Positions 5,431-31,311 of a DNA stretch of 32,000 bases are shown here, piece after piece (the stretch's first letter is position 1; every line of letters begins with the position of its first letter). Position numbers and translations under genes: made by a program. The notes under the pieces are model-generated. The model ran no database searches, had not been told where the DNA came from, and saw nothing but the letters and a program-made list of their open reading frames with translations. The stretch comes from Candidatus Aldehydirespiratoraceae bacterium (GTDB lineage: Bacteria; Actinomycetota; Acidimicrobiia; Acidimicrobiales; Aldehydirespiratoraceae), in contig OZ242337.1 in NCBI GenBank assembly GCA_965208435.1, positions 1,422,100-1,454,099 of the forward strand, read 5' to 3'.

Positions 5431-5451
5431 CAGATCACCTCCTCAATTCAC

Positions 5452-8231: not shown

Positions 8232-9347
8232 TCACCGGTCGATGGTGTTGGTCCCACTTGGAGTGCGACCCGCCGAACAACCCTCAAGTTCAACATCGGT
8301 TGGTGCCGGGAATGGCCCGTCGACCAGGTCACCGCACAATTCGGTCACAACCCCGGCCGCATACGCAGACCCATCGAAAGGCGTGTCGTAGCCGGCATAG
8401 TCTTGCACGTACTGCAGGATGTACGTTCCGTTCTCGTCAGATGGATTCTTGTGATCCACCAGAAGTTCCACAACACCGGCCGCGCCACGCAAGTGAGCCC
8501 CTGCCAACAAGCCTGAGAGCGTGACCTCAACCTTGTTCGAACGACCTCCCGGCGGAGGACTGACAGACGGATCCAACTGATCCCACGACACATACATACC
8601 CAGATAGTCTTTGAGCGTTTTTCCCTTAGCTTTCAACCCCGCCACAATACCATTGTATTTATTTGTGAAGTGATCCTTGATTACAAGAATGTGCTTGTCA
8701 GGATTCGTGAAATCAACATAACCATTTATCCCATTCTTGCCAGTAAAATTTGAATCATAAAAGGCGACCGTATCGGTAGCTAAAGTCGGCACCTCGACAA
8801 CAGGCGGATACACCAATGTGGAACGTACACCATTGGCCCAGGTATTGTTAGGAAGGTCGACGTAGTGTGACGGGTAGAATTTGTCTCCAACCTCAAACTC
8901 AGGAAACTTGTAATAACCTGTATCTACGAGGTCTGACTCTTGAAACTGGAATCCAACAAATCCCAGATAGTTAATAACATTTGATTGAATCAACTTCCAG
9001 TCTGGGTTCGTATCATTCGGATCATAGAGTTTACTGATACCAATTGTTTCAAACAATTCTTTGATTGTAACCGAACTACGTTGTACTGGATTGCCGTCAA
9101 GATCACGTACAACGCGCCCGGGATAGTTGACTTCTGGGTATGATTCAACCGGGTTGTTCCAGTTCTTATTATAGTAGCCCTGCTGAGAAGGATCGATATC
9201 AGATTCATATGCCCAAAGTACATCAATAAAGTCATCGTACGACTTTGTTTGTACATCACCTACAGTTGATTCAGCTCCGACTGCAGGAATCGAGCTTCCT
9301 ATCAAGCTTAGAATCAGCGCAACAATGCTGAACGAATAAATCTTCAT
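8232..9347 (-). CDS. secreted hypothetical protein with anomalously low-GC 5' part
   Basis: 371 aa; N-terminal signal peptide 'MKIYSFSIVALILSLIGSSIPAVGAES'; region ~8590-9347 is much more AT-rich than all neighbours. Confidence 0.75.
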   Translation of the reverse strand: MKIYSFSIVALILSLIGSSIPAVGAESTVGDVQTKSYDDFIDVLWAYESDIDPSQQGYYNKNWNNPVESYPEVNYPGRVVRDLDGNPVQRSSVTIKELFETIGISKLYDPNDTNPDWKLIQSNVINYLGFVGFQFQESDLVDTGYYKFPEFEVGDKFYPSHYVDLPNNTWANGVRSTLVYPPVVEVPTLATDTVAFYDSNFTGKNGINGYVDFTNPDKHILVIKDHFTNKYNGIVAGLKAKGKTLKDYLGMYVSWDQLDPSVSPPPGGRSNKVEVTLSGLLAGAHLRGAAGVVELLVDHKNPSDENGTYILQYVQDYAGYDTPFDGSAYAAGVVTELCGDLVDGPFPAPTDVELEGCSAGRTPSGTNTIDR

Positions 9348-9353
9348 GGGTCT

Positions 9354-10091
9354 TCATTCTCCTCTATTTGTTAATTGTTGAGACGCTAATGGGTCCAACA
9401 CGACCGTGACATTGGTGTGGAGTTGAATGGCTGAAGCAGGTACGGCATCGGAGATCGGACCCTCGACAGTTCGTGCTACGGCACTGGCCTTGCCCGCTCC
9501 GCAGGCCACAAGCAGCAGTTCGGACGCGGCAAGGATCGTGGCGATGCCCTGAGTCATTGCTCGGGTCGGGACAGAGTGCCCGGCCACAAAGAAGCGGGCG
9601 TTGTCCTCCCGGGTCTGCTCGCTCAGTTCAATGACTCGTGTGATGCTGTCGAACGGTGTGCCCGGCTCGTTGAAGGCGATATGGCCATTCGTTCCGATCC
9701 CGAGGATCTGCAGACCGATCGAAGCAGCCCGCACCTCCTGTTCGTAGCGTACGCACTCCGCTGTCAGATCCTGGGCCTGGGTGTTCGGACCATGCAGAGA
9801 GCCACTGCGCAGATCAACGTGTTGCGCGAACAGGCGGTGGACGACAGACCAGTAAGCATTGGGGTCGTACCGTTCCAATCCGACGTATTCGTCGAGCAGG
9901 TAGGCGTCAACGGGACGAAAGCTCAAACCCTGCCGTCGGTGACGACTCACGAGTTCGGCAAAAAGACCTTCCATCGTTTCACCGGTGGCGAGCCCCAATG
10001 CCGGCGACTCTGAGGTGGAGACGAATCGTTCGACGACACCCGCTGCTTCTCGTCCGACGCTGTCGGGGTCGTTGCAGACGATGATCCTCAT
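9354..10091 (-). CDS. nagB: glucosamine-6-phosphate deaminase
   Basis: 245 aa; 'ALGLATGETMEGLFAELV', 'LDEYVGL', 'LGIGTNGHIAFNEPGTPFDS'. Confidence 0.9.
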   Translation of the reverse strand: MRIIVCNDPDSVGREAAGVVERFVSTSESPALGLATGETMEGLFAELVSRHRRQGLSFRPVDAYLLDEYVGLERYDPNAYWSVVHRLFAQHVDLRSGSLHGPNTQAQDLTAECVRYEQEVRAASIGLQILGIGTNGHIAFNEPGTPFDSITRVIELSEQTREDNARFFVAGHSVPTRAMTQGIATILAASELLLVACGAGKASAVARTVEGPISDAVPASAIQLHTNVTVVLDPLASQQLTNRGE

Positions 10092-10951
10092 GGCGTCGCA
10101 GGGTCCCCAGTGCCTTGGCTGGTGCCCCTGGCTGCGACTGCGGCACCGACGATCCCGGCGTGCATACCGTTGCGAGCCACCGAGATCGGCTTGGAGAGCT
10201 CGAGCTTCGATGAGAACTGCTCAAAGTCGTCGCTGAGCCCACCACCGACGACCCACCGCGAAGGGTTGAGGATTGCCTGAAGTTCGTCGAAGAACGGTTG
10301 TGCACGCCTGGCCCACTCAACAGGGGTGAGCGCCTCAGTTGAGATGGCACGTCCCGATGCGACTTCCTCGAAACAGCCGTCCACGCCACTGAGACTGCCC
10401 AACTCGGAATCGGCTATGAGGTTGCCGTTGTGCAGCAGTGCACTGCCGATGCCGGTGCCGAACGTCAAGACGATCGTGAGGCCGGACTCGTCGAGACTGG
10501 CCTCGCCGTAGACCAGTTCGGCCAGTCCGACCGCGTCGGCGTCGTTGATCAGCACCGCATTGCCTCCGTTGGGGGCGCGCAGCCATGTCAACGCTTCTGT
10601 CTTCTCCCAGGAAGCGCAGAGATTCGGGGCGTGCCTCAAGCTCGATCCGCTGATCATGCCCGGCAGGGCGATGCCTACCGGACCGGTCCACTGCATCGCC
10701 GCAGCGATGCGCCGCGTCGCTGCGGCGACATCATCCGGGTTGGCTGTCGGCGGGGTCGGTTCGACAAGGGCTCGCCTCGTCAGTCTGCCCACTTCGAGAT
10801 CGACGATAGCCCCCTTGATGCTGGTACCTCCAACGTCGATGCCGAGCCACATTGTGGAGCCGTAATCCAGCGGGTGGGGCTGCTGGTCGTGCCCGTCCCC
10901 GTCACGGCTGCGAACAACCTCAGAACACCCCATCTCAATGTCGCGGCTCAT
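10088..10951 (-). CDS. ROK-family / polyphosphate glucokinase-like sugar kinase
   Basis: 'MWLGIDVGGTSIKGAIVDLEVG', 'LTIVLTFGTGIGSALLHNG'; homology-consistent start is MWLGID at 10852, while the ORF extends to 10951 giving an ATGA overlap with the ABC gene. Confidence 0.85.
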   Translation of the reverse strand: MSRDIEMGCSEVVRSRDGDGHDQQPHPLDYGSTMWLGIDVGGTSIKGAIVDLEVGRLTRRALVEPTPPTANPDDVAAATRRIAAAMQWTGPVGIALPGMISGSSLRHAPNLCASWEKTEALTWLRAPNGGNAVLINDADAVGLAELVYGEASLDESGLTIVLTFGTGIGSALLHNGNLIADSELGSLSGVDGCFEEVASGRAISTEALTPVEWARRAQPFFDELQAILNPSRWVVGGGLSDDFEQFSSKLELSKPISVARNGMHAGIVGAAVAARGTSQGTGDPATP

Positions 10952-17829: not shown

Positions 17830-18540
17830 ATGTACAACCTGATCCTGGTGCGCCACGGGCGTTCGGAGTGGAACGACCTCAACCTCTTCACCGGCTGGTA
17901 CGACTGCCCGTTGATGGAGACCGGTCGACAGGAGGCCCGCGACGCCGTGCCGCTGCTGGCCGAGGCAGGCCTGCTGCCGGACATACTCCACACCTCGCTG
18001 CTGCAACGGGCCATCGAGACCGCCGAGATCATCCTCGCCGGACTCGACCGCCGGTGGATTCCCGTGCGAAGGCACTGGCGGCTCAACGAACGCCACTACG
18101 GCAACCTCACCGGCCTCGACAAGGCCCAGGTCGGCGAGATCCACGGTGCCGAACAACTCCGGCAGTGGCGACGCAGCTACAGCACCCCGCCACCGCCGAT
18201 CAGCGAAGACAACGAGTTCAACCCGGCGAAGTCCGCCGCCTACGCCGACCTCGCACCGGAACTGATGCCCGACACCGAGTGCCTCGCAGACGTGGTGGAC
18301 CGGCTCTTGCCCTACTGGTACGACTCGCTGGTCCCCGACCTGCGCACCGGCCGCAACGTCATGGTCGCCGCCCACGGCAACTCACTGCGGGCCCTCGTCA
18401 AACACCTCGACAACATAAGCGACGACGAGATAATCGAACTCAACATCCCCACCGGCGTCCCCCTGCACTACACCATCGGCCCCGACATGCGCCCCACCGA
18501 CCAGGCCCACCCCCTCGACCGGGCCCTGACCGCCGACTGA
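17830..18540 (+). CDS. gpmA: 2,3-bisphosphoglycerate-dependent phosphoglycerate mutase
   Basis: 236 aa; '[22 protein letters not shown]', '[15 protein letters not shown]', '[16 protein letters not shown]'. Confidence 0.96.
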
Positions 18541-18587
18541 ACGACCTGGAGGAGGCGGGTTCGCTTGGTCGCGCGGATGTCGTACCA

Positions 18588-19739
18588 CTAGATCAAGGGC
18601 TGAGGTACCATCCATAGATTTTCGGCGGACCGCCGAAAGAAACCCGCGGGATGCTGTTCTTGCGCCGCCTTCATACGTTCGGCATTCAAGTTCTTTGGGT
18701 TTGCTTCGGTCATTCGAAGCGCTTGAAGACCACCGCAGACTACTTTCGCCGAATACCAACCGAGCCTTTGCGCTCCAATAGGCAACCGGGGTGTTAGATC
18801 CACTGCAAAGGCTGGTCCAGCGGTGCGTTCCATCTCGTTCGCAAGTTCAGCGAGAGTCAGTGGTCGTCCATCTGTGTGATTCGACGCGGGCGGCACGAAC
18901 GCGTCAACCCACTCCCGGAGCGACTGATTCGCTTCCTCAGAAGTCCAGTACTTCGCGCGAGTGAGGTCATCGACAACGTGCCGTGGCGGCACCTGGCCAT
19001 GGGCCGTGAAAACACCGCGGAGCACGCAAAGGACCTGGAGGGCCTCACGAAGCGCTCGGCAACTACCCTCGAGACTTGAGTATGAGATCGCGGCACCTAC
19101 CGCACTGGCCGGCGCCGGACCAATGACACAACCCACGAAAGCGCTGTACCCCGGGATTGGGGTCGCCATACGAGCGATCACAACGTCGGTATCTTGTTCT
19201 TCAGCGCTCGTCAAAAGGCGGTCCATGCTGCTTGATCCTCGGTGTTCAGCGAGATCGACTCGTTCGAGTCTGGCTTGAAGATTCCACGCGACCATCACCG
19301 CATCCCGTTCAACGAGTTCGAGCAGGCCCGACCGTATGGCGGCTTCAAGACTTGGACCGGATGCCGCGCCAGACGGCGACGGGTCAACCGTCGCATTGGT
19401 GTTGATGTCAAGTGGATAGTCCACCTCGACCTCGGGGACATCGACGGTCTGTTCCCAGTCCGAAAGCCTGAAGCCAGAATATGACGTTTCGCGGAGCGCG
19501 CTCGGAAAGAGCGAGCGGCGCTCAACCGCCTCCCCAACGCCACGCAGAATCGTGTCGTGCCGGGTCAGACCCGCCGCACCAACCAGCGCTAGGGAGTGTG
19601 CCTCGCTATCAGTTGCCCCGTTTCGGCCGATATTAATAGCAAGAGTCCACAGCCTACAGTTCTCAACGCACGGCGGGTAGAGCGTGGCGCTGCTGGCCAC
19701 ACCTACCGACGGCTCCAGGGTTTCGAGGTATTTTATCAC
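18588..19739 (-). CDS. YcaO-domain protein (RiPP tailoring candidate), last gene of the operon
   Basis: 383 aa; YcaO motifs 'RGVGEAVERRSLF', 'IRSGLLELVERDAVMVAW', 'SSLEGSCRALREALQ'; 4-bp start/stop overlap with the upstream dehydrogenase gene. Confidence 0.82.
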   Translation of the reverse strand: MIKYLETLEPSVGVASSATLYPPCVENCRLWTLAINIGRNGATDSEAHSLALVGAAGLTRHDTILRGVGEAVERRSLFPSALRETSYSGFRLSDWEQTVDVPEVEVDYPLDINTNATVDPSPSGAASGPSLEAAIRSGLLELVERDAVMVAWNLQARLERVDLAEHRGSSSMDRLLTSAEEQDTDVVIARMATPIPGYSAFVGCVIGPAPASAVGAAISYSSLEGSCRALREALQVLCVLRGVFTAHGQVPPRHVVDDLTRAKYWTSEEANQSLREWVDAFVPPASNHTDGRPLTLAELANEMERTAGPAFAVDLTPRLPIGAQRLGWYSAKVVCGGLQALRMTEANPKNLNAERMKAAQEQHPAGFFRRSAENLWMVPQPLI

Positions 19740-20995
19740 GTCGCCCCGTTCTCGGAAGCTCTCGGCACTCCAACGGATGCTTCATGCAGAATGGCTTCGA
19801 CATCCTCAACCGTGAATCGGCTCAGCACAGGGCGCGGGGCACCCCAGCGATCAATGATCGTTTCCGCCAGCGTGTGGATTTCGGCTTCAGAGAAATCTAG
19901 GTCGGTGCCTGATGGGTGACGTAGCAATTGCTCAAGCTCCTCAGCACCCGAAAGACCGAGTGCTTGAGTCACCTCACAGACCCTACCTGGAAAGCCCCAC
20001 CGGTCGTCGCCGGTCACAACGCGCCGCAGCCAAGGGCCGACTAGCGCGCTGGTCGCCTTGACCTTCCTGATTCCGGCGATCGTCGCCATTTCGTTGGCGA
20101 CGAACCACAGGGGCGATCCGATCGGAGGTCGCCCCTTCAGGGCAGCAGAGGTGTGCGTCGATGCGCTCAGCCAACCAGATGTAAGACGAGCATCGGTATC
20201 ACACAGTCCGGTTTCGGGGAGGCGCAGCATCAGCGCCAGCGATCTGAGGAGACTCTCTGCGACGATGTCTGGGATCGTCAGCTTGTACGGCGTGTTAACC
20301 ACCGGGCCGAGGATCCGCACGAATGCCTCGAACAGCCCCTCCCAAACGGATGTCGCGCTGAGCGTTGATGTTGCAACGCTGTCCAGAATCGCCTCATCAA
20401 AGTGTAGAGATCGTCCCCGGAGCAACAGTCTCTGATCCTGGATCCTCAAACAGGCAACAGAACTCACCTCACTCCCGGTGCCCACCGTTGTCGGAATCGC
20501 TACGAACCAGCGATCATCTCGGTGAGTCCGTTCGACGGTCAACAGGCTGCTTCGCTGTGCTTGCTTTCTCCATCGCCCGATCTGGCTCGGACTCGTGCTC
20601 GCGATGCGCGCGAGTTTTGCTACATCAAGGGTGTTTCCACCGCCGATCGCCAGCACCGTGGTTGGCTTGAGATCAGCCAACCAACGGGCAACCCTTTCGA
20701 TTTCGGACAGATCGGCATCCGGCGCGACTTCAATAACCGGACCCCGGTAACTATCGCTGAGCCACGGGCCGAGCAATGGCATGCGGCTGACCACCTTATC
20801 AACCGCGACCGCGTCAAGGTTCACCGTTGCGAGTGCTCGAAGAATCGAGTTGTCGCCGACCGTGAGCTTTTGACTGATCTGTTGCCAAGGTTCGCCCGGT
20901 TGGCGTCGAGCGACATCAAGTTTACGTCGCAAGTACGTACTCCACCGCTTCGAACGCAAGATCCAGCATTTCATCAAGTTCCTCCGAGGACGCAA
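19736..20995 (-). CDS. Fe-ADH-type dehydrogenase, candidate daptide-type oxidative decarboxylase (MpaB-like)
   Basis: 419 aa; 'TTVLAIGGGNTLDVAKLARI', 'FVAIPTTVGTGSEVSSVAC'. True start probably downstream of 20995, since the ORF overlaps the aminotransferase by 74 nt. Confidence 0.8.
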   Translation of the reverse strand: MRPRRNLMKCWILRSKRWSTYLRRKLDVARRQPGEPWQQISQKLTVGDNSILRALATVNLDAVAVDKVVSRMPLLGPWLSDSYRGPVIEVAPDADLSEIERVARWLADLKPTTVLAIGGGNTLDVAKLARIASTSPSQIGRWRKQAQRSSLLTVERTHRDDRWFVAIPTTVGTGSEVSSVACLRIQDQRLLLRGRSLHFDEAILDSVATSTLSATSVWEGLFEAFVRILGPVVNTPYKLTIPDIVAESLLRSLALMLRLPETGLCDTDARLTSGWLSASTHTSAALKGRPPIGSPLWFVANEMATIAGIRKVKATSALVGPWLRRVVTGDDRWGFPGRVCEVTQALGLSGAEELEQLLRHPSGTDLDFSEAEIHTLAETIIDRWGAPRPVLSRFTVEDVEAILHEASVGVPRASENGAT

Positions 20996-22178
20996 CGAAT
21001 GCGGGAACCAATTGAATGCAGGACGGTCCGGGCTGAACGATTACCCCGCGGCGTAACGCCTCAGTGACGATCTCGCCTACTCGTTGTGGCTCAACGATCG
21101 TCCCTTTCTCATCATGGAGCACAACCGCACGGAATAGCCCGGTGCCGCGCGTGCCTGCAACAAACCGGTTTGAAGCAGAACGCTCAGCGAGCCCGTTGCA
21201 GAGCTGCTCGGCTAACGCCTGGCGTCGCGCTTCAGCGCCGTATTCGATGTGCTGTTGGATTGAGGCGATCATTGCAGCACAAGACGGGGGGGTTCCAGCC
21301 TGCGTCTCGCCATGCACGAATGCGGCGTCGGCGGCGGAGAAGCGCTCACTGACGCGTTCCGACCAAAGAACGGCTGAGGCAGCAGCGGCGCCATTGGTCA
21401 GAGCTTTGCTGAGAACCAACACGTCGGGAGTCACTGGCCAAGTTGAATGCGCGAATAGAGGACCGGTGCGGCCAAACCCTGTGGCGACCTCGTCGGCGAC
21501 AACCAGGACTCCGTACTGTCGCTTCGCTTCAAGGATTTCAAGCAACAACTCCATCGGAGGTTCAATCGCCCCCGAGCCAAGCAACGGCTCTAGCACGACG
21601 GCGGCTACCGAGTCGCCTGAATGGGCAATGAGTCGTCGAAACTCGTCGGCAGATCCCACAGCAACGTGGCGCACATGTCGCTGGTCAGCCCCGTACAAGA
21701 GCTGACCGAGATTTTCTCCTGAAAGCGCCACAGCTCCGAGCGTCGTACCGTGGTAGCTGCCCTTCATGCTGACTACCAACCGGCGTTGGTGCGCCTGCTC
21801 TAGGTTCCAGAACTGCCGCGCAACCTTGATCGTCGCATCAATAGCGGCCCCACCAGATGTCGCAAAGAGGACACGTTGGAAATTGGGCCCGGCTAGCGTC
21901 AGCAAGAGATGGGCCGCCTCCTCGGCAAATCTATGGTTGTAGCGAAAGAGTGTCAGGTATGAAGCTTCGATGAGGGAGGAGTGCACCGCGTCCGCGACCT
22001 GGCGGTTCCCATAGCCAAGGCTGACGTTCCAGAGACCGCTCGTCGCACATAGGCGTCTTTGGCCGTCCAGAAAATCAACGCGGACGCCATGTGCACTGAC
22101 GGCCATTCGCAGAGGGGGCGAAGAAACACTCGGCGGCGTGAAGAACTGAACCACCGAGCTCTCGGTATGCTCACTCAT
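20922..22178 (-). CDS. class III PLP aminotransferase, candidate daptide-type (MpaD-like)
   Basis: 418 aa; 'SMKGSYHGTTLGAVALSG', 'VVADEVATGFGRTG', 'LSKALTNGAAAASAVL'. Confidence 0.85.
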   Translation of the reverse strand: MSEHTESSVVQFFTPPSVSSPPLRMAVSAHGVRVDFLDGQRRLCATSGLWNVSLGYGNRQVADAVHSSLIEASYLTLFRYNHRFAEEAAHLLLTLAGPNFQRVLFATSGGAAIDATIKVARQFWNLEQAHQRRLVVSMKGSYHGTTLGAVALSGENLGQLLYGADQRHVRHVAVGSADEFRRLIAHSGDSVAAVVLEPLLGSGAIEPPMELLLEILEAKRQYGVLVVADEVATGFGRTGPLFAHSTWPVTPDVLVLSKALTNGAAAASAVLWSERVSERFSAADAAFVHGETQAGTPPSCAAMIASIQQHIEYGAEARRQALAEQLCNGLAERSASNRFVAGTRGTGLFRAVVLHDEKGTIVEPQRVGEIVTEALRRGVIVQPGPSCIQLVPAFVASSEELDEMLDLAFEAVEYVLAT

Positions 22179-22632
22179 CGTGTTCCTTTAGGTAAGTGGT
22201 CACATACAGCCGTCGATCCTCGATGTGGTGCTGAGCAGCGGCTATGCACGTTCGTGACGCGATTAATAGGCCTCTCAGCTCCGCTTCCCGGTCAACGGTG
22301 TCCTGAGTAAGAATTCTTGTCGATGTCGTCCAAACGCGAATCGGTCGTGCGTTTGAAGCGACCGTCACATGACGACGAAGGGCCTCCGTGTCGACATACT
22401 CGAAGAGGGTGAACTCCTCGTCGCCGAGATCGATCACGGTGGTCGACTCCTGAGACAAGGACTTGGGTAGATCGACTTCGAGCAAAGAAAGAACGAAGCG
22501 GCCTCCGGGCCGTAGCATCTTCCACACTCGGTCGAAACAGTCACTGCGGTCCTCAGCAGACAGGAGGCTGATCGAGCTCGTACCGACAACTACGACATCA
22601 GCCCCTGAGTCCAGGCAGAACTCCTGCATTAG
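22171..22632 (-). pseudogene. C-terminal part of the IS-disrupted class I SAM methyltransferase (includes one TSD copy)
   Basis: 152 aa in frame 'MQEFCLDSGADVVVVGTSSISLLS...VWKMLRPGGRFVLSLLEVDLPK...' continuing the N-terminal fragment when the IS is removed. Confidence 0.88.
22628..22632. repeat. left target site duplication ATTAG
   Basis: ATTAG immediately before the IS terminal CCTGG; matches the copy at 24246-24250. Confidence 0.93.
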
Positions 22633-24245
22633 CCTGGATCCACCGGTGGGGTTGGGTTGTTGGTGTGTTCGCGTCCGCGGAAAAGGCCTCCTGGTCTGCG
22701 ATGATTGTGATGACTAAAAGTCACTTTCGTCACAAAAACAGGAGGCACTTTTCGTGTCTGTATCATCGCGCAGGTTGGACCGGTTGGCAACAACGTTTGA
22801 TCATGAGGGCCTGGTAGCGAACGCGGGCCTGGTTCTGGCTGCGACGTTGTTCGCTCGTTTGGGTCTGTCGGGGTTGATCAAACGGTGGGTGGACACTGGT
22901 TCGCCGAACCCGGACCGCAAGGTTTTGACGGTGGTCGCAGCGATGCTGGCGGGTGGCACCCATATTGATCATGTCGACATGCTGCGCGCCGGGCGCACTG
23001 GCAGCGTGTTGGGGTTTGCCCCCGCGGCGCCGTCGACGGTGGGAACGTTTCTGCGGACCTTCACGTTCGGTCACGTCCGCCAGCTCGAAGCGGTGGCCTC
23101 GCGGGTTTTGGCGCGGGCCTGGCAACTCGGCGCAGGCCCGGGCTCTTCGCCGTTGGTGGTGGATCTGGACTCCACGGTCTGTGAGGTGCACGGCAAACTC
23201 AAGCACGGCGCCTCCTACGCCTACACCAAAGTGTTGGGCTATCACCCGCTGCTGGCTGTGCGTGCGGGCACCTCTGAGGTGCTCGGAGCGCGGATGCGCA
23301 AAGGCTCCGCTCACTCATCGCGTGGTGTGCTGCGCTTCGTCGATGAGCTCATAGCCAACCTCAAACGCGCGGGTGCTGCCGGGCCGGTCACGATACGCGC
23401 CGATTCGGGGTTCTGGTCCTGGGGGCTGATCGACCGTCTCAACACTGTTGACGTGAAATGGTCGATCACCGTGTCGCTGAACTCTGCTGTCCGCGCCGCT
23501 ATCGAGACGATCGGCGACAAAGCCTGGGTTGACATCGACTACCCCAAAGGGGGCCACGCCCAAGTCGCCGAAACCCTCTATACCACCGGCCGCGGCAAAC
23601 AACGCCGCACCGTGCGCCTCGTGGTGCGCCGCACCCGCCTCACCGACCGCGCCCAGCAACGGCTCTGGCCCAACTGGCGCTACCACGCCTTCATCACCAA
23701 CAGAAACGACCTCAGCACCGTCACAGCAGACCAATTCCACCGCAACCACGCAGTCGTCGAGCTCGCCATCCGCGACCTCAAAGAAGGCTCCGGACTCAAC
23801 CACATCCCCTCCGGGCACTACCCAGCCAACTGTGCATGGCTCGCCTGCGCCGTGCTCGCCCACAACATCGGCCACTGGACCGCCATCCTCACCAACACCA
23901 CACCAGCCACCAACCAAACCCGCCGCACCCGCCTCACCGCGCTGCCCGCCGTGCTCGTCAACCGATCCGGCACACACACCCTGCGATACCCCACCCGCTG
24001 GCGATGGCAAACCCAATTCACCAACACACTCACCAAACTACGAAACCTGCCCGGACCCTCCGGCTAACCCCCACCACCCAAAGGAACCCGGCACCCTCCA
24101 GCACACACCCAGCGCCACCAACCCAACCCAACCCCTGAACCCTGAACCCAACACGCCCCAACACACCAAACCCAGTCCCAAACACCCAACCCGACACCCG
24201 CCCACCAACCACCCCACCCACCAACACCGAATCGGTGGATTCAGG
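22633..24245 (+). mobile_element. complete IS1380-type insertion sequence, 1613 bp
   Basis: imperfect terminal IRs CCTGGATCCACCGGT / CCTGAATCCACCGAT (13/15), flanking 5-bp ATTAG duplication, full transposase inside. Confidence 0.92.
22754..24067 (+). CDS. IS1380-family DDE transposase
   Basis: 437 aa; 'SSPLVVDLDSTVCEVHGKLKHGASYAYTKVLGYHPLLAVRAGTSEVLGARMRKGSAHSSRG', 'HNIGHW'. Confidence 0.92.
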   Translation: MSVSSRRLDRLATTFDHEGLVANAGLVLAATLFARLGLSGLIKRWVDTGSPNPDRKVLTVVAAMLAGGTHIDHVDMLRAGRTGSVLGFAPAAPSTVGTFLRTFTFGHVRQLEAVASRVLARAWQLGAGPGSSPLVVDLDSTVCEVHGKLKHGASYAYTKVLGYHPLLAVRAGTSEVLGARMRKGSAHSSRGVLRFVDELIANLKRAGAAGPVTIRADSGFWSWGLIDRLNTVDVKWSITVSLNSAVRAAIETIGDKAWVDIDYPKGGHAQVAETLYTTGRGKQRRTVRLVVRRTRLTDRAQQRLWPNWRYHAFITNRNDLSTVTADQFHRNHAVVELAIRDLKEGSGLNHIPSGHYPANCAWLACAVLAHNIGHWTAILTNTTPATNQTRRTRLTALPAVLVNRSGTHTLRYPTRWRWQTQFTNTLTKLRNLPGPSG

Positions 24246-24250
24246 ATTAG
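24246..24250. repeat. right target site duplication ATTAG
   Basis: ATTAG immediately after the IS terminal ...TCAGG. Confidence 0.93.
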
Positions 24251-24595
24251 GCCCGTTTCAACGCTGAGGTTACTCCGTCGCCGAGAGAGGCGCGGATCCG
24301 CGTCAATTGTCTCTTCTAAGAAGCGGAGCATCTCTGGCGAGTTATCGACAGCGATCACTTCGGCACCTATTGCGAGAAGTGCCTTCGTGATCCTCCCCGA
24401 ACCGGCTGCAAGCTCCACGACGCGGGTCCCGCGGCCCCCGCATGCCCGGATGATCTCTGGAAGCTCGGAACGATCGTTCTCAGTCAGGTGGTGGTAGAAC
24501 GAGGCACCAGCAACGTACATATCGCCTCGTCGCTCAGCCGAGCAGCGGGCCCACGCGATGCCGCCTCGACCCGGCGGATCGGCTACGGGGGTCAT
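24246..24595 (-). pseudogene. N-terminal part of the IS-disrupted SAM methyltransferase, candidate daptide-type (MpaM-like)
   Basis: SAM motif I 'TRVVELAAGSGRITKALLAIGAEVIAVDNSPEML'; ORF runs into the IS at 24245; ATGA overlap with the upstream gene. Confidence 0.88.
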
Positions 24596-25599
24596 CTCGT
24601 TTCGTCGCAGGATAGCCGGTCTCCAAGTATCTGGGCCTGGACCATCTCACAGCTTTGGACAGCTTGAAGTGATGGGATGCCGAACACACTTGAGATCGCT
24701 TCGATCGCTTCAGTTCGGCTCGCTGTTCCGAACATGATTTCTACGATCGTGGCTGCATCTGGGGGTGCTTTGAGGACCTGGCCAGTCACCGGGTTTGCGA
24801 CCAGATGATCACTCCCATCGAAGAGCACGATCGGAGAGTCGGGACGCTCGGTTGGCAGCTTCGGCAGTACTCCTTGGGTCGTTCTGTAACCGAAGCCACT
24901 GACGAGGGGCATCTCCTTGACGTGTCTCGTCGACACCCGGCGCATGACACCTAGGACGGCTAGGTAACGGCCGAGCCATGGTCGCTCGCTGGTTCCTCGC
25001 TGCAGCTCAGTCCGCGTAGCGGCCTCTGAGACACACCGCTCGGCGGTTCCACCAAAGTAGCTCGGCTGCGTCGACCCATCTTTCCCAACAAATCGACGGG
25101 CACCTGAGGCACTGGCACAGGTGCGCGAGGAACTCAGCGCGCATTCGTCAGCAAACGCAACATAGGGGTGAAGTAGGTGCGGTCGAAAGACGCCTTCGTC
25201 GACGGCATCGTCAGCATCGGCGAGGAAATCCGCGACATCCTCAGTCGAGTGGACCGTGAAAAGGGTTGGGCCGGTGGTCGGAATGTAGGCCCCTGTCGCG
25301 TACGCAAACGAGGTCACCGAGAGGCCGCTGGAGAGCGCAAGTTCGTCGCCGTCGAAGTTGAGCGACCCCGTGTATGTGGCGATGTCGCCTCGAGAATTGA
25401 CGCGGCCCACTAGCTCTTCGGGGACAAATATCAGGCTGGTGGCCGGCAGATCCAGCGATTCAAGTACCGCAGCCGGTGCTCCCGGAAGTATGAGTACCTC
25501 CTTGGGGAACGTGGACACCGAACCCGGTCCATTGTCATACGTGCCGGTCAGCACTCGCTGAAGCCGCATCGCAGCATCTTCTCTACCACTACCCAGCAT
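24592..25599 (-). CDS. putative RiPP recognition/accessory protein (daptide MpaC-like position and size)
   Basis: 335 aa without catalytic motifs; C-terminal 'HLVANPVTGQVLKAPPDAATIVEIMFGTASRTEAIEAISSVFG' resembles a winged-helix/RRE-like segment; located between M50 protease and methyltransferase. Confidence 0.55.
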   Translation of the reverse strand: MLGSGREDAAMRLQRVLTGTYDNGPGSVSTFPKEVLILPGAPAAVLESLDLPATSLIFVPEELVGRVNSRGDIATYTGSLNFDGDELALSSGLSVTSFAYATGAYIPTTGPTLFTVHSTEDVADFLADADDAVDEGVFRPHLLHPYVAFADECALSSSRTCASASGARRFVGKDGSTQPSYFGGTAERCVSEAATRTELQRGTSERPWLGRYLAVLGVMRRVSTRHVKEMPLVSGFGYRTTQGVLPKLPTERPDSPIVLFDGSDHLVANPVTGQVLKAPPDAATIVEIMFGTASRTEAIEAISSVFGIPSLQAVQSCEMVQAQILGDRLSCDETR

Positions 25600-25611
25600 G
25601 TCTGTTGCTCC

Positions 25612-27180
25612 TTAACTTGTTAGAGATTCGATTGCCGGCTGAACCACACGTTGCCTTGCCCAGCTGCTTGGTGACAGGCCAGGCTGATGCGCGACTGAGC
25701 GGAGCGCCGCCTCTCGTGGTGCCAGCTCCGATATGAGCTCGATCGGAACACACTGTGCCTTAGAGGTCAGCGCCAACCCGGTTATCGGGACGATGGCCTC
25801 GAGTGGGGTTTCGCAGGACACGGCCGGACCAGTGACGCGCGCTCGGCCTAGTTCAGCTCCAAGCACCAGCCCGCCGCTGTGGATGACAATTTCCATCCCG
25901 ACGTCGATCCCGTCCTTGCTCACTGTTCCCGTCGGGAAGACGACAAACCAATTTCCATCGGTTTGCGTGACGCCACCGACGTAGCGGTTGTCTATCGTGG
26001 TAAACGACAGCGCGGCCGACACGCCCAGCACAGCCACGAGCAACCAGCAGGCCGCTCGGAGCGGTCTTGCTCCTTCTCGCAACACTCTGACGGTCCGGCG
26101 GACCGCGATCCGAAGTGCATAGAAAGAGAGACCAGCGATTAGCGCGAATAGCGCCGCCGCGCCAGGCTTTTCCAGTGCCATCAGCAGGGATCGAATGGCA
26201 ATGATCGCATACATGATGAGCACGATGGGTACAACGAGAGACACGAATCCAAACATGGGTGTCCAGCTGCGGGTCGGCTCCCTGCGGGGACCGCCCAGCA
26301 GTCGAAACGACACCCAGGCCCAGAAGTCGTCAATTGATTTCCTGCGGAGATGTGAGATATCAAGCCATGTGGCGAGAGCCAAATATCCATCCAGCTTGAC
26401 GAAAGGTACAAGGTTGAATAGTGCGAACGCGTAGCATGCGAGACCAAATACCACGAGACCTGTCACGAGTTCGCCGCTGACCGCGTAAGCCAACAAGACG
26501 GCAACGCCTCCCATGGCAGCATGGGCACCAACTCCTGCGAGAGCCACCGCGACTCGTTGGCGCGGCTCAAGCCGCCATGCGCCGGTCACATCACAGAAGA
26601 ACGCGGGCGAGAGGTAGAAGAGCATCACGCCCATCCGCCGAGGTGACTCGCCATAGGCCATCAGGGCGCCGGCATGTGCCATTTCGTGAACGAACGTCGA
26701 AAAAAGGAGCGATATCAATATCGCGGCATACACCTCGATCGAAATGGACGACCCCAGGGAATCGTCAACCAGCTGTCGATTCGTACCGAGGAGAATCAGT
26801 CCCGCGCCGGCAATCGAAAGAAAGAGAAGCCTGATTCTGGGCCTGAGAACGGCGCGAGCGACGCTAGCTAACCAACGCAGCCGAACGGATGGATCAAGGA
26901 GACTGATCTGCAGCGAGAACGGTGGCCGGAACTGAACGCGCTTTGGGCGGATCTCAGCGCATTCGGACAAGAGTTCAAGCCTCTCGAGTTGCCCTCTAGT
27001 CGCCCCCACGAGGGCTGGAAACCATGGCGGCCCGAGGAGTTGCGACACCTCGCTATCTGATATCGTTGGAGCTTGGATCAAGATGTCACGCACCCGTGAA
27101 GCGTCATGCCCGATCCGAACAAACTGGCCGTTGGCTGTCTCGACCAACACGGCTGGGGTTGCCTGATCAGGAGCGGTCAT
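25612..27180 (-). CDS. M50-family intramembrane metalloprotease, candidate leader peptidase (MpaP-like)
   Basis: 522 aa from MTAPDQ...; zinc motif 'FVHEMAHAG', second motif 'NLVPFVKLDGY', many TM segments; ATGA overlap with the permease stop (27177-27180). Confidence 0.85.
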   Translation of the reverse strand: MTAPDQATPAVLVETANGQFVRIGHDASRVRDILIQAPTISDSEVSQLLGPPWFPALVGATRGQLERLELLSECAEIRPKRVQFRPPFSLQISLLDPSVRLRWLASVARAVLRPRIRLLFLSIAGAGLILLGTNRQLVDDSLGSSISIEVYAAILISLLFSTFVHEMAHAGALMAYGESPRRMGVMLFYLSPAFFCDVTGAWRLEPRQRVAVALAGVGAHAAMGGVAVLLAYAVSGELVTGLVVFGLACYAFALFNLVPFVKLDGYLALATWLDISHLRRKSIDDFWAWVSFRLLGGPRREPTRSWTPMFGFVSLVVPIVLIMYAIIAIRSLLMALEKPGAAALFALIAGLSFYALRIAVRRTVRVLREGARPLRAACWLLVAVLGVSAALSFTTIDNRYVGGVTQTDGNWFVVFPTGTVSKDGIDVGMEIVIHSGGLVLGAELGRARVTGPAVSCETPLEAIVPITGLALTSKAQCVPIELISELAPREAALRSVAHQPGLSPSSWARQRVVQPAIESLTS

Positions 27181-27923
27181 CCCAGGCCCTTTTTGTCGAT
27201 CACAAACCACGCGACCGTGGTCACAACGGCGACCCAACCACAGAAGACAACGATGCCAACCGCCCAGCCCACCGTCTCGAAGCTCTGATCCCGATAAATG
27301 GCTAGCTGTGCACCCCCCGGGAGCCATCGGCCGATACTCGGGGACAGCGCCAGCAAAGCCGACTCGGCCGCAAGGGTCCAGACAATCGCGCCGATGATTG
27401 TCGGGACCTGACGCCTTCCGAGCCAGCCAAGCGCCGCACCCCATAGTCCAGCCAGGCCAGAAACCAAGAAGACCCCGATCGCGGTCTTGACCATCTCACT
27501 GTTCCACTCAAGTCGGACGTCCTGTTGCGCCGCCCAGAGTGTCGCAGCAGCTATCCCGGTCCCTGCCCCCACCAGGCCAAAAACGACGCCGGAGCCAATT
27601 CCTGCGACTGCCTTGCCCAAGAAGAGATTTCGTACACGGCCAGCGCTGATGAGAGACCTGATGATGGATTCATTTTGGAACTCCCGGGTCACAATGAGAA
27701 TGCCGACGATCATCGCGAACAGCGAACTTGCAAACCCCAGCGAGAGTATCTGTTGTGTCGCGTCATCGGCTCCCACGGCGCCGATGACGTGCTCGTCGGC
27801 GAGAGTTCTACCAGTCCCAAACATGGCAGTGGCATTTAGAACACCGGAGAAGAGCGAAAGAACCAAAAGCGTACGTCCGGCGCAGAGCTTGATGAACTCC
27901 GCGCGAAGTGTTCGACGCAGCAC
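27177..27923 (-). CDS. ABC-2 type transporter permease
   Basis: 248 aa; multiple TM segments, 'ILIVTREFQNESIIRSLISAGRVRNLFLGK'. Confidence 0.85.
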   Translation of the reverse strand: MLRRTLRAEFIKLCAGRTLLVLSLFSGVLNATAMFGTGRTLADEHVIGAVGADDATQQILSLGFASSLFAMIVGILIVTREFQNESIIRSLISAGRVRNLFLGKAVAGIGSGVVFGLVGAGTGIAAATLWAAQQDVRLEWNSEMVKTAIGVFLVSGLAGLWGAALGWLGRRQVPTIIGAIVWTLAAESALLALSPSIGRWLPGGAQLAIYRDQSFETVGWAVGIVVFCGWVAVVTTVAWFVIDKKGLG

Positions 27924-27925
27924 GG

Positions 27926-28657
27926 TCAGGTTTTCTCGTCAGGTTGTGCGGTCCCGACGGTTACTTCGAGGTACCGATCCTCGAGCGTGCTTGCCCCAGA
28001 AGCCGTGAAGTCGTTCCTGCTGCCCTGGTACCTCACTTGGGTATTCAGTATCGTGACTTGGTCAACGATCTGTTCGATCTCAGTCAAGACATGACTGCAA
28101 AGGATTACGGCCCCGCCACCGTCTGCATGTGCCCGTAGCAAGCGTCGCAACCAATGGATCCCCTGTGCGTCGAGTCCGTTGTGGGGTTCATCGGCTATCA
28201 ATAGACTCGGATCGCCGATCAAGGCAGTTGCGAGCGAGAGACGGCGGCGCTGCCCCGTGGACAACTTCCCCACTCGCCGCTTTGTCAGGCCACTCAATCC
28301 GCACTCCTCGACTAGGTCGTCGACCCGTCGCATCCCCGTGCCAGAGCCAACCGCGGCGGCACGCAGATGACGGCCGACGGTCATGTGGTTGTCAAGCCCA
28401 TTTTCCATCAGCACCCCCACCACCAAGGCGGGGTCAGGCAGATCTAGCAGTCTGGAACCGTAGATCAGGACACTGCCCGATGATGGAGGCGTGATGCCTA
28501 GAAGGCACTTCAGTACGGTCGTCTTCCCCGAGCCATTCGGACCGAGCAGTCCGTGGATCTCGCCCGTCTTGACAACAAGACTCAAATCGTCCACAGCGTT
28601 CACATCCCTGTAGGACTTCGTCAGGCCAGATATCTCGACAGGATGATTGTCACGCAT
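27926..28657 (-). CDS. ABC transporter ATP-binding protein
   Basis: 243 aa; 'GLLGPNGSGKTTVLKCLLGI', 'LSTGQRRRLSLATALIGDPSLLIADEP'. Confidence 0.93.
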   Translation of the reverse strand: MRDNHPVEISGLTKSYRDVNAVDDLSLVVKTGEIHGLLGPNGSGKTTVLKCLLGITPPSSGSVLIYGSRLLDLPDPALVVGVLMENGLDNHMTVGRHLRAAAVGSGTGMRRVDDLVEECGLSGLTKRRVGKLSTGQRRRLSLATALIGDPSLLIADEPHNGLDAQGIHWLRRLLRAHADGGGAVILCSHVLTEIEQIVDQVTILNTQVRYQGSRNDFTASGASTLEDRYLEVTVGTAQPDEKT

Positions 28658-28666
28658 GACTTGGCC

Positions 28667-28873
28667 CTACTTTGGCTGCTGTTTCGAGCGAAACACGCCA
28701 ACTGACGCCAACAGCGACAGGGAAGCCAACATCAGGAGGAACGCCAAGCCGATCGTCGTACCATCAGCGAGGCCAGCGTTGATCACCCAGACTGATAGGC
28801 CAGCGAGACACGCTGCAACCCCTGCGAGCCCCGCTGCAAACTGAGGTGAGGCGGCAAATCTCGGAGACTTCAT
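28667..28873 (-). CDS. small two-TM membrane protein of the RiPP operon
   Basis: 68 aa from MKSPRFAASPQF...; two hydrophobic segments; purine-rich GAGAGAGAG upstream; lies between precursors and ABC ATPase. Confidence 0.6.
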   Translation of the reverse strand: MKSPRFAASPQFAAGLAGVAACLAGLSVWVINAGLADGTTIGLAFLLMLASLSLLASVGVFRSKQQPK

Positions 28874-28922
28874 AGTTTCTATCTCTCTCTCGTGTGTCTC
28901 GAAAGTACTACCGAAGAAGCGC

Positions 28923-28955
28923 GGAGCCCCCGGTGGCATAGCCACAAGGGACTCC
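28923..28955 (-). promoter_or_regulatory. intergenic hairpin between precursor genes and maturation genes (attenuator/processing candidate)
   Basis: GGAG-c-CCC-cg-GTGGC-ata-GCCAC-aa-GGG-a-CTCC, 12 pairs with internal mismatches; no T-tract. Confidence 0.45.
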
Positions 28956-28964
28956 ACGCTTGGC

Positions 28965-29141
28965 TCAGGTGATGGCTACTCCGACGTAGAATAGGGCGAC
29001 CAAACCGAGGCCAATTCCAACGCCCGTAAAGAACGAACCCCAGCCCCAAGGGGCCTCAAGGCTCTCCATTGGTTCCATCTGTAGCGACAACAAAGCAAAC
29101 TCCGCGTCGACAACATCCTGCGTCAATTCCATGGTGTTCAT
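28965..29141 (-). CDS. RiPP precursor peptide 1 (daptide-like, C-terminal Thr)
   Basis: 58 aa MNTMELTQDVVDAEFALLSLQMEPMESLEAPWGWGSFFTGVGIGLGLVALFYVGVAIT; strong SD GGGAGGTGA; absent from the supplied ORF track. Confidence 0.85.
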   Translation of the reverse strand: MNTMELTQDVVDAEFALLSLQMEPMESLEAPWGWGSFFTGVGIGLGLVALFYVGVAIT

Positions 29142-29187
29142 CGATTCACCTCCCTTCGAGGTTAGACGGCGATGGGATGGCTCAGGG

Positions 29188-29367
29188 TCAGGTGACCGCT
29201 ACGCCCAACGCAACGACAGCAAAGCCGATTACAATGCCGGTGGCCAGGCCCGCAAAGAACGAACCCCAGCCCCAAGGGGCCTCAAGGCTCTCCATTGGTT
29301 CCATCTGTAGCGATAGCGATGCGGTTTCAACATCGACGCTAGCGGGGGCCAAGTCAACGATAGTCAT
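29188..29367 (-). CDS. RiPP precursor peptide 2 (daptide-like, C-terminal Thr)
   Basis: 59 aa MTIVDLAPASVDVETASLSLQMEPMESLEAPWGWGSFFAGLATGIVIGFAVVALGVAVT; strong SD GGGGAGGTGA before the internal ATG; ORF track over-extends it to 29448. Confidence 0.85.
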   Translation of the reverse strand: MTIVDLAPASVDVETASLSLQMEPMESLEAPWGWGSFFAGLATGIVIGFAVVALGVAVT

Positions 29368-29814
29368 TTTCACCTCCCCTCTAGTGGTAGGAAGTGCGGA
29401 ATTCGGGCAACAGCAACGGAGGCAAGACGCTGGAAAATAGCGGGGCATCTCTTTCGGAAATGTCAGGAATACCTACGACTATATGACTTCTCTGTGTGTC
29501 GCGCAAGCCGGGGCCAAGTTCTTGGACCATGCCGATTCGACGCCAGCACCAAAAGCTGAGGCACGGAGAAACCGCCTATCGAATTTCGAGGGGAGGGGGG
29601 AGTGACACTAAGGTGGCTCTAGGGGCTCGCCTTCTCTTGGGATTTGTCAGGAAACACTTCTTTTTGCGGGGGCGAGCCTCTCGTATCCCAGTTCCCACCC
29701 AACGAGACACGCAAGCCCAGGGTCTTCTTCACGGGCTCTCACCGCCGACTGATTCCCCGCAACGGAGACACCCGCAGGACAGCGACAGAGAATGCTGGTT
29801 CTGGCGGCGCCCCC

Positions 29815-30480
29815 TAACCCGGATTTTTCAGTAGGGGGTCTGTGTGGGGGTGGTTGCTTTCACGAGATGCCCTCCTGGTGTGGGAGAATCAGGTTTGCAA
29901 GGAGATTCTGGGGCCACATCAGGGGGGCACTCGTATGGTGAATGAGCTTACTGGCAGTCGGCCGCGGTTGAGGTTCACTGGCGGGGGGCGGGGTCTGGCT
30001 GTTCATGCCGGGACGCGGCTGCTGGCTGATCTGGCCGACAACACGGGGTTGACGGCGGCGTTGTCTGAGGTGATGGCGTCGACCAAGGTGCGGGACCGGG
30101 GCCATGACCGGGGCCGGGTGCTTGCTGACGCGGCGGTGATGATCGCCGATGGTGGCGAGGCGATCAGCGATATCGCCGCGCTGGGTTGTCAGCGGGGGCT
30201 GTTCGGGGAGGTCGCGTCGCTGTCGACGCTGTGGCGGACCCTTGATGCTGCAGGGGGCCGTGTCGAACAGATCAAAGCGGCGCGGGCCACAGCGCGCCGC
30301 GCGGTGTGGGCCGCGGGCGCGGACCCGGGGTTCTATGTGATCGACATCGACGCCACGCTGGTGGACTCGCACTCAAACAAGCAGGGCGCCGCGGGGACCT
30401 ACAAGGGCGGCTTCGGGTTCCATCCGCTGATGGCGTACCTCGACGCGACCGGCGAGGCGCTGGCCGGTCTTTTGGGAGGT
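29815..30480 (+). mobile_element. 5' fragment of a second, different IS1380-type element
   Basis: IRL-like 'taacccggatttttcagtaggg', transposase from 29935 'MVNELTGSRPRLRF...FYVIDIDATLVDSHSNKQGAAGTYKGGFGFHPLMAYLDATGEALAGLL' cut at ~30480. Confidence 0.75.
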
Positions 30481-31311
30481 GTCAGATGCTCTGTGTTTGG
30501 CGGGTTTACATGCCCCGAACACGGTGCCGTGGAAGCACCACAGTTGGTTGGGCCGCCACTCACACCAGTTTGGCCACGGCGTCTTGATTTTCTTGGCGGG
30601 GCGTGGCGTGCCGGCCAGCGCAAGGCCGTGACCTGCAAGAACGCGGTCCACCGTTGAGGGCGACACCCACACACGGCCCAGATACGAACCGCGGTGCGCG
30701 AGTTTGCGATGCGACCGGTCGATGTCACCCCACTCGTTGAACAGCGCCACGATCTCGTCGCGTTCAGAACCGAGCAGACTGTGGATCGCCCAGCCGCCCG
30801 CTCGGGCATCATCAAGAGTCCCCCCGGCGCGGCGCAGGCTCCAGCGCCACACCCGGCGGCGGTCCACACCCAGCACCGCACAAACCCGGTCCAGTGTCCA
30901 GCCAGCGTCGACGGCATCGTCGATCAACCCCAACAGCACAGACTTGGCGGTCCCATCAATACGGGCGGGGACACCACCGCTCACACCTCAACCCGATATT
31001 CGGTGCAGCACCGCCAGCTCCACAGCCTGTTCGACCACAGTACGCCCCAGCCGTTCCACCTCCGAGCGCAACGCTGCGGCCTCGGTCGTCTCGGCTTGGG
31101 ACTGACGCCGCCGCCCGGGCTTCGACGTACCCAAAGCCGCGACCGCCCCGTCCCGGGCCACCGCACGCAGCCGAGCGATCACCGACCGGTCCACACCAGC
31201 CTCCGCGGCCGCTTGGGCCTGAGTGACCTGACCGGTGAGCATCCGCACCCACAGGTCGTACTTCTGCTCTGCTGTCAACAGCTTCTTCGGTTTTCTCTGC
31301 TCGGAACTCAT
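30481..31311 (-). mobile_element. IS3/IS481-like element remnant (two-ORF transposase, truncated integrase domain)
   Basis: 30988-31311 orfA-like HTH 'LLTAEQKYDLWVRMLTGQVTQAQAAAEAGVDRSVIARLRAVA'; orfB-like (ORF 30373-30984) '...IKTPWPNWCEWRPNQLWCF' loses homology to rve after WCF. Confidence 0.65.

Follow-up and report, generated by a model that had tools for sequence, protein, structure and literature searches.

A YcaO-containing daptide gene cluster, probably crippled by an IS1380-family element in dapM, in an Acidimicrobiia genome

Introduction

Under the inclusion rule used by the discoverers of the daptides, a cluster encodes an iron-containing alcohol dehydrogenase (Fe-ADH, PF00465) adjoining DapB; the precursor peptides carry the leader motif ELExMEAP and a C-terminal Thr that is invariant, and YcaO genes are among the frequent secondary genes of these clusters (Ren et al. 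2023, Nat Commun 14:1624). The daptide-associated YcaO proteins form a group of their own in the YcaO similarity network, and two of them, TfDapY from the tfDap cluster of Thermobifida fusca and SaDapY from the saDap cluster of Streptomyces azureus ATCC 14921, have been reconstituted (Dommaraju et al. 2025, ACS Cent Sci 11:2143, PMC12670281 / bioRxiv PMC12338566). Here we compare with these systems a locus in a 32,000-nucleotide stretch of DNA from a Candidatus Aldehydirespiratoraceae bacterium (assembly GCA_965208435.1, contig OZ242337.1, positions 1,422,100 to 1,454,099 of the forward strand), which as a whole is called the window below. We propose, with a probability of about 0.8, that the gene array at window positions 18588-29367 is a YcaO-type daptide cluster of the DapY imidazoline branch that has probably been crippled by an IS1380-family insertion element in its methyltransferase gene, dapM.

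In the reconstituted pathways DapB and DapC together carry out an oxidative decarboxylation, DapD a transamination and DapM one methylation, after which DapY cyclodehydrates the secondary amine onto the last amide to give a C-terminal 3,4-dimethylimidazoline (M-49). When DapM was omitted in vitro, TfDapY and SaDapY turned the unmethylated diamine into a 4-methylimidazoline (M-63), which is not a DapM substrate afterwards and has never been observed in vivo for saDap. Thiopeptide-daptide hybrids with azoline-type YcaOs also exist (all PMC12670281 / PMC12338566).

Results

Family assignment of the core enzymes

The daptide equivalog models of NCBIfam were the best match for every core enzyme. 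Scores above the cutoff were obtained for DapD (NF041821, 493.9 bits against 450), for the DapB/RRE protein (NF041823, 161.8 bits against 150) and for DapP (NF041824, 315.7 bits against 300), the last of which carries an HEMAH motif and is 522 residues long, as are its orthologues. DapC reached 225 bits on NF041822 (cutoff 300), with this model its top match by about 180 bits, and 60.6 bits on PF00465 (cutoff 31.3). The shortfall on NF041822 is not alarming, since the experimentally validated SaDapC scores only 252 bits on the same model and is likewise below the cutoff. The two halves of DapM each gave about 84 bits on NF041820, for which the cutoff is 175. The best NCBIfam match of dapT1 was a lantibiotic-protection ABC ATPase. 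DapB is 26-31% identical to TfDapB and SaDapB, and DapD is 46% identical to TfDapD.

Orthologous loci of related strains (L001-L005 and L055-L061) were available for comparison. Against these orthologues the dN/dS of the pathway genes was 0.13-0.36, with DapC at 0.24-0.26. The suggestion that the low model score marks dapC as a pseudogene was therefore rejected: the open reading frame (ORF) is intact, its dN/dS lies at the value just given, and the validated SaDapC falls under the cutoff too.

The YcaO protein as a member of the DapY family

The YcaO protein of the window matched the general YcaO model PF02624 with 74.9 bits (cutoff 25.7). As NCBIfam, Pfam and the PDB hold no DapY-specific family model or solved structure, membership in the DapY family was tested against sequences from the published supplement. 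TfDapY and SaDapY, taken from Table S4 of PMC12338566 and machine-read from the PDF so that a few errors are possible, aligned with the window YcaO over its full length at 32% identity (E 2e-36 and 8e-35). By comparison, the closest solved structure in the PDB was LynD, with a phmmer E of 3e-4 over only 80 residues.

A database search returned four close relatives (78-93% identity) and a set at 29-33% identity from Streptomyces, Paenarthrobacter and Cellulomonas. A scan of one genome per GTDB species with the YcaO alignment gave at least 49 loci, at 29-36% identity among the matches listed; the relatives at 78-93% were absent from these and were obtained by a separate search for their encoding contigs. 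Among the matches listed, dapD and dapC lay within 10 kb and on the same strand in 46 of the 48 loci with a tblastn hit, and dapP did so in 47 of the 48, while TfDapY and SaDapY matched all 49 fetched loci at or beside the YcaO gene with 28-81% identity.

The window YcaO is complete and well folded as a domain. The acidic motifs GEAVER (residues 69-74) and ELVERDA (141-147) are invariant in the YcaO family alignment, and we take them to be the Mg/ATP-binding ExxER motifs seen in YcaO structures. The AlphaFold2 model had a mean predicted local distance difference test score (pLDDT) of 89 and a predicted template modelling score (pTM) of 0.90, and every Foldseek match at E <= 0.001 was to a YcaO structure, minimal archaeal YcaOs of equal size among them, at template modelling (TM) scores of 0.6-0.7. 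The dN/dS of dapY against its orthologues, 0.18-0.27, points to purifying selection and is within the range of the other pathway genes. In the window and in all relatives the dapY start codon overlaps the dapC stop codon, so that translation of the two genes is coupled. By its sequence, the window YcaO is a member of the DapY family, and we infer that it would catalyse the ATP-dependent cyclodehydration to the 3,4-dimethylimidazoline.

An insertion element in dapM

In an alignment of the orthologous loci, collinearity of the window with L001-L003 and L058 breaks at 22632/24246. The DNA between these points is an insertion element whose 437-residue transposase (22754-24067, plus strand) matches NF033539 with 280 bits (cutoff 180) and PF13701. 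Its terminal inverted repeats, CCTGGATCCACCG and CCTGAATCCACCG, agree in 12 of their first 13 bases, and it is flanked by a perfect 5-bp target duplication, ATTAG, at one copy of which the 5' fragment of dapM ends. The orthologous site in L001, L002, L003 and L058 is free of the element. When 22633-24250 was removed, a DapM ORF of 268 residues was restored that is 95.5% identical to the DapM of L001 and scores 179.3 bits on NF041820, above the cutoff of 175. It follows that the insertion is recent and that dapM is otherwise undamaged. DapM is thus a family member by score, but its gene is split by 1613 bp of foreign DNA, and the methyltransferase is abolished by the insertion.

The genes dapD, dapC and dapY lie downstream of the element, and the transposase is oriented against the operon. 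Transcription of these three genes is therefore probably reduced or blocked, and C-terminal processing probably abolished or much lowered. It is probable that the cluster is crippled, and the pathway is unlikely to be completed in the present genome.

Precursor peptides and the small membrane gene

Both precursors end in Thr, share the leader ...LSLQMEPMESLEAP and carry PMESLEAP, which is similar to the published daptide motif ELExMEAP. The dapA1 gene is preceded at 7 nt by a GGAGG ribosome-binding site. On the daptide precursor models A1 remained below the cutoff (NF041805, 20.8 bits; NF041808, 19.5 bits), while A2 exceeded it on NF041808 (26.7 bits against 25). The two peptides are 61% identical, and at the DNA level their coding regions are a direct repeat of 120 nt (78% identity). 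Orthologues of A1 in L002 and L003 are 88% identical, and A2 has orthologues in L001-L005. The cores contain no Cys. Across the orthologous precursors the C-terminal Thr is the sole invariant residue of the core, and the internal Ser and Thr residues vary (for example WGWGSFF to WGWTEFF). This pattern fits a substrate that is modified at its C-terminus and argues against azoline formation.

The two-helix membrane ORF that follows the precursor genes is kept at 68 residues in L001-L005, L060 and L061, and every close relative has it. It matched no family, and it is not among the listed genes of saDap or tfDap. Possibly, it encodes a candidate immunity or accessory protein.

Organisation of the cluster

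The array was delimited by a six-frame ORF listing and direct reading, and its features are collected in Table 1. The genes are co-directional on the minus strand in the order dapA1, dapA2, small membrane gene, T1, T2, P, B, M, D, C and Y. Most junctions are overlaps of 4-8 nt, with 4 bp at T2/P, B/M and C/Y and 8 bp at M/D; the start of dapC was set by analogy with its 412-residue orthologues. A promoter and terminator scan of 18000-30000 found such sites no more often than in shuffled sequence and was uninformative both on the operon boundaries and on a promoter carried by the element.

Table 1. Coordinates of the daptide cluster in the window and the basis of each assignment (PLP, pyridoxal phosphate; SAM, S-adenosylmethionine; RiPP, peptide synthesized by the ribosome and modified after translation).
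Feature	Position	Strand	Basis
dapA1, 59-aa precursor MTIVDLAPASVDVETASLSLQMEPMESLEAP / WGWGSFFAGLATGIVIGFAVVALGVAVT	29188..29367	-	read from sequence
dapA2, 58-aa precursor MNTMELTQDVVDAEFALLSLQMEPMESLEAP / WGWGSFFTGVGIGLGLVALFYVGVAIT	28965..29141	-	NF041808 daptide-type RiPP match
68-aa hydrophobic membrane protein	28667..28873	-	ORF; between precursors and ABC transporter genes
dapT1, ABC transporter ATPase	27926..28657	-	PF00005, 102 bits
dapT2, ABC-2 type permease	27177..27923	-	PF12730, weak, 19.8 bits
dapP, RRE-fused intramembrane HExxH (site-2/M50-type) leader peptidase, 522 aa	25612..27180	-	NF041824 daptide_HExxH
dapB, DUF-RRE partner of the decarboxylase, 335 aa	24592..25599	-	NF041823 daptide_RRE
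dapM 5' fragment (SAM-binding half)	24246..24595	-	NF041820 profile positions 4-89, 84 bits
IS1380-family insertion element, 1613 bp	22633..24245	+	NF033539, PF13701, inverted repeats, target duplication
dapM 3' fragment	22171..22632	-	NF041820 profile positions 96-236, 84 bits
dapD, PLP class III aminotransferase (predicted aminoacetone to 1,2-diaminopropane terminus)	20922..22178	-	NF041821
dapC, predicted Fe-ADH-type Thr oxidative decarboxylase	19736..20974	-	NF041822, PF00465
dapY, stand-alone YcaO, daptide-associated clade, 383 aa	18588..19739	-	PF02624

An earlier note on this DNA had described the locus as one minus-strand operon with short or overlapping junctions, and we found the same gene content, order, strand, junctions and outer coordinates. 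The operon is, however, interrupted by 1.6 kb of oppositely transcribed foreign DNA, so that while every role in the note's gene list is present, the methyltransferase exists as two pieces and the insertion element had been overlooked. Its reading of the locus as daptide-type is borne out by the daptide models, which rank first for all core enzymes, and by the passing score of A2; that both peptides end in Thr was likewise confirmed by direct reading. In the comparison with the daptide families that it proposed, DapD, DapB and DapP scored above their cutoffs and DapC reached 225 of 300 bits, and an intact DapM was absent. Its use of the name MpaB for the Fe-ADH enzyme needs to be reversed, as MpaB is the DUF-RRE partner and MpaC the Fe-ADH (Ren et al. 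2023).

Related loci and genomic surroundings

The island is found in various states among the related strains. It is intact with two precursors in L002, L060 and L061, and L001 has a single precursor. The dapT1 ABC ATPase is truncated to 162 residues in L003 and L004, and the precursor genes are missing upstream of dapT1 in L055-L058. In L056, dapM is interrupted independently and at another site (about 4830-7560; compare about 7398-7404 in L058) by an IS1380-family element that differs from the one in the window and is likewise oriented against the operon. Many genes are split in L059, in part perhaps through long-read assembly error.

The cluster (window 18000-29400) has a GC content of 0.58-0.60, compared with 0.63-0.68 in its flanks. 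It adjoins gpmA in most relatives, while in L003 it lies between a DNA methylase gene and prs/rplY. Both the lower GC content and the different neighbourhood in L003 fit an island that moves horizontally. Its edge is a graveyard of insertion elements: at 29842-30657 on the plus strand, immediately upstream of the cluster, lies a truncated IS1380-family transposase that covers only profile positions 6-178, overlapped on the opposite strand (30373-30984, minus) by an IS481-like fragment. This truncated transposase is no copy of the dapM element, and since the two share no repeat, the proposal that they delimit a composite transposon around the cluster was rejected.

Elsewhere in the window, a block of low GC content (0.52) at 8232-10951 is missing from the syntenic region of L001. 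It encodes a 371-residue protein without a Pfam match, a protein similar to glucosamine-6-phosphate isomerase/6-phosphogluconolactonase, and a ROK-family protein, and it is probably a separate acquired insertion. The DnaK of the window (dnaK, 6087-7928) shares 95-98% identity with proteins that carry the label 'MAG: Acidimicrobiaceae bacterium'. By this measure the host appears to be an uncultured member of the Acidimicrobiaceae, a family of the class Acidimicrobiia. In a published daptide survey, all 840 actinomycetotal daptide clusters were in the class Actinomycetia, with Acidimicrobiia absent.

Discussion

A YcaO in a daptide cluster does not make a new hybrid, and its mechanism is the known imidazoline branch of DapY. 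The earlier note had taken such a hybrid to be uncharacterised, but the co-occurrence was reported by Ren et al. (2023) and the reaction was reconstituted by Dommaraju et al. (2025). It had also supposed that the YcaO adds a separate modification to the backbone. This idea is not borne out, as DapY uses the amine installed by the pathway on the last backbone amide, and the window YcaO is of the DapY family. Since DapY acts through an amine that the daptide enzymes themselves install, it adds no unrelated second modification but redirects the daptide pathway at the C-terminus itself.

By homology to the reconstituted enzymes, the steps of the intact cluster can be proposed as follows. DapB would bind the leader at PMESLEAP and offer the C-terminal Thr to the Fe-ADH DapC, which would convert it by oxidative decarboxylation to an aminoacetone terminus. 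Transamination by DapD would give a 1,2-diaminopropane terminus, to which DapM would add a single methyl group. DapY would then activate the last backbone amide at the expense of ATP, and attack by the secondary amine would close the 3,4-dimethylimidazoline (M-49), a cyclisation that would have to compete with a second round of methylation, the product of which is the tertiary amine (M-17). DapP would presumably cut the leader after EAP, and DapT1T2 would export two very hydrophobic peptides of 27-28 residues. For cores cut after EAP, the calculated [M+H]+ values of A1 and A2 are 2766.50 and 2787.49 without modification, 2717.53 and 2738.52 with the dimethylimidazoline, 2749.56 and 2770.55 with the dimethylamine, 2703.52 and 2724.51 with the 4-methylimidazoline, and 2721.53 and 2742.52 with the diamine. 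The IS1380-family element has entered dapM recently, opposite to the operon, with loss of the methyltransferase. At best, the peptides of the present genome would be left unmethylated at the terminus, as diamines or as 4-methylimidazolines.

Some observations weigh against this reading. The score of DapC lies under the curated cutoff of NF041822, and the activity of DapY is deduced at only 32% identity. The window DapY is without about 40 residues that all other members of the family have (between ...ERRSLFPS and YSGF..., at about 80-95), and it ends in VPQPLI and not in the canonical PxPxP, where TfDapY has PHPLP and the validated SaDapY PHPLI. The polarity of the insertion on dapD, dapC and dapY is something that we infer, and a weak sigma-70-like site in the left end of the element (22790-22762, minus strand, 9 of 12 positions) faces dapD, although a scan that returned 4 such sites where 2.3 were expected is what chance would give. 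Finally, the assembly is of the metagenome type, so that perhaps not all of the population carries the insertion. As to the missing segment, the gap is typical of the Acidimicrobiaceae clade, and the segment is found in every DapY protein of Streptomyces, Thermobifida and Micrococcales.

Two other roles for the YcaO have to be weighed. It might make an independent internal modification (a Ser/Thr azoline, a thioamide or an amidine), in which case the cluster would be a new hybrid of a daptide with the thiazole/oxazole-modified microcin (TOMM) type. The cores do contain Ser and Thr, thiopeptide-daptide hybrids with azoline-type YcaOs are known, and the best match of the protein among the general models is the azoline-forming SagD family (TIGR03604). 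However, this match, at 81 bits, is far under the cutoff of 219, and TfDapY is equally weak at 74 bits. A search with the NCBIfam and Pfam profiles found no E1/ThiF-like partner, azoline dehydrogenase or TfuA in the cluster, the cores lack Cys, and none of their internal Ser or Thr residues is conserved; on the grounds of score, partner and Cys, assignment to the azoline-forming SagD class of TOMM cyclodehydratases was rejected. With the end-to-end alignment to two characterised DapY enzymes and relatives that, among the matches listed, almost always lie beside dapC and dapD, an independent modification seems to us very improbable. It might also be thought that the YcaO is an inactive passenger, in a lineage that makes ordinary dimethylamine-terminated daptides, and the deletion of about 40 residues and the non-canonical PQPLI terminus would fit such a loss of function. 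Yet dapY has a dN/dS similar to that of the other pathway genes, its ATP/Mg-type acidic motifs are invariant, its model is of high pLDDT at 383 residues, the size of the minimal archaeal YcaOs with which it aligns, and the start-stop overlap with dapC is kept in all relatives. We regard an inactive YcaO as unlikely, and a functional DapY remains the preferred reading.

The state of the cluster is also open to a different interpretation, in which it is still productive and the insertion acts as a switch of the end group: with dapD, dapC and dapY expressed by read-through or from a promoter in the element, M-63 4-methylimidazoline or M-45 diamine peptides would be made. All genes besides dapM are intact, the candidate outward -35/-10 site is available, TfDapY and SaDapY accept the unmethylated diamine in vitro, and L056 has acquired its own IS1380-family insertion at another site in dapM. 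Two insertions in this gene could reflect chance or selection against methylation. They are not unusual, however, for an 807-bp gene in a cluster of about 9 kb, where a second insertion would fall in the same gene by chance with a probability of about 0.09, and the loss of the precursor genes from L056 points to decay and not to retuning. The promoter-like site comes from a scan whose yield did not exceed that of shuffled sequence, in both strains the transposase points against the operon, and the 4-methylimidazoline has never been seen in vivo for saDap. Continued production is thus rather unlikely, if somewhat less so than an inactive YcaO. A further speculation is that loss of dapM with retention of DapY represents a natural switch from dimethylimidazoline or dimethylamine to 4-methylimidazoline, an end group so far known only in vitro, with the short DapY of Acidimicrobiaceae being adapted to an unmethylated substrate; we give this idea very little credence. 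A DapY-type daptide cluster that is probably crippled by the insertion in dapM thus continues to be the interpretation that we favour.

The locus is a damaged copy of a known cluster type, and its new content is useful but incremental. It does extend the taxonomic range of daptide clusters to an uncultured lineage of Acidimicrobiia, a class missing from the published survey. The minimal DapY, which in length falls about 40 residues short of the characterised enzymes, could help to define what the enzyme requires. Across the related strains, where the island is intact, hit by an insertion, stripped of its precursors or frameshifted, the locus provides a population snapshot of decay. For genome mining, the cluster would need to be repaired by excision of 22633-24250 before expression, or the intact alleles of L002, L060 or L061 used in its place.

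Among the known systems, saDap (azuritides 1-4; PMC12670281 / PMC12338566) has the same gene order, A, T1, T2, P, B, M, D, C, Y, and both clusters have several Thr-terminated precursors and a stand-alone DapY ending in ...PLI. The identities to saDap are 51% for DapD, 34% for DapC, 32% for DapY and 31% for DapB. It differs in having four precursors where the window has two, while the window has the extra 68-residue membrane gene, a DapY shorter by about 40 residues, an interrupted dapM and a host in Acidimicrobiia and not Streptomyces. The weak match of the dapT2 product, PF12730, is to the family reported for TfDapT2 and SaDapT2. In tfDap, whose DapB, C, D, M and Y have been reconstituted in vitro, the same five-enzyme route leads to the dimethylimidazoline. 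TfDapY is 32% identical over the full length, and the Tf leader motif ELEAMEAP resembles PMESLEAP; on the other hand, the gene order of tfDap is unlike that of the window, TfDapY ends in PHPLP, and tfDap includes two enzymes that serve to form D-Ala, a LanKC-type dehydratase and a luciferase-like reductase, neither of which is encoded in the window. The founding daptide cluster, mpa of Microbacterium paraoxydans (Nat Commun 14:1624), agrees with the window in the core logic of DapA, B, C, D, M, P and T as well as in leader motif and invariant C-terminal Thr, but a YcaO is missing from it, and its pathway ends at the N,N-dimethyl diamine and not at an imidazoline. More distantly, LynD/TruD, McbD and the archaeal YcaO of McrA thioamidation have the same fold and the same ATP-dependent amide activation (Foldseek E 1e-13 to 1e-10, TM 0.6-0.7), though LynD/TruD, McbD and the archaeal YcaOs are only 14-19% identical to the window YcaO. 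From all of these it differs both in having no partner protein in the window and in its nucleophile, which for DapY is a C-terminal amine that the pathway has installed enzymatically.

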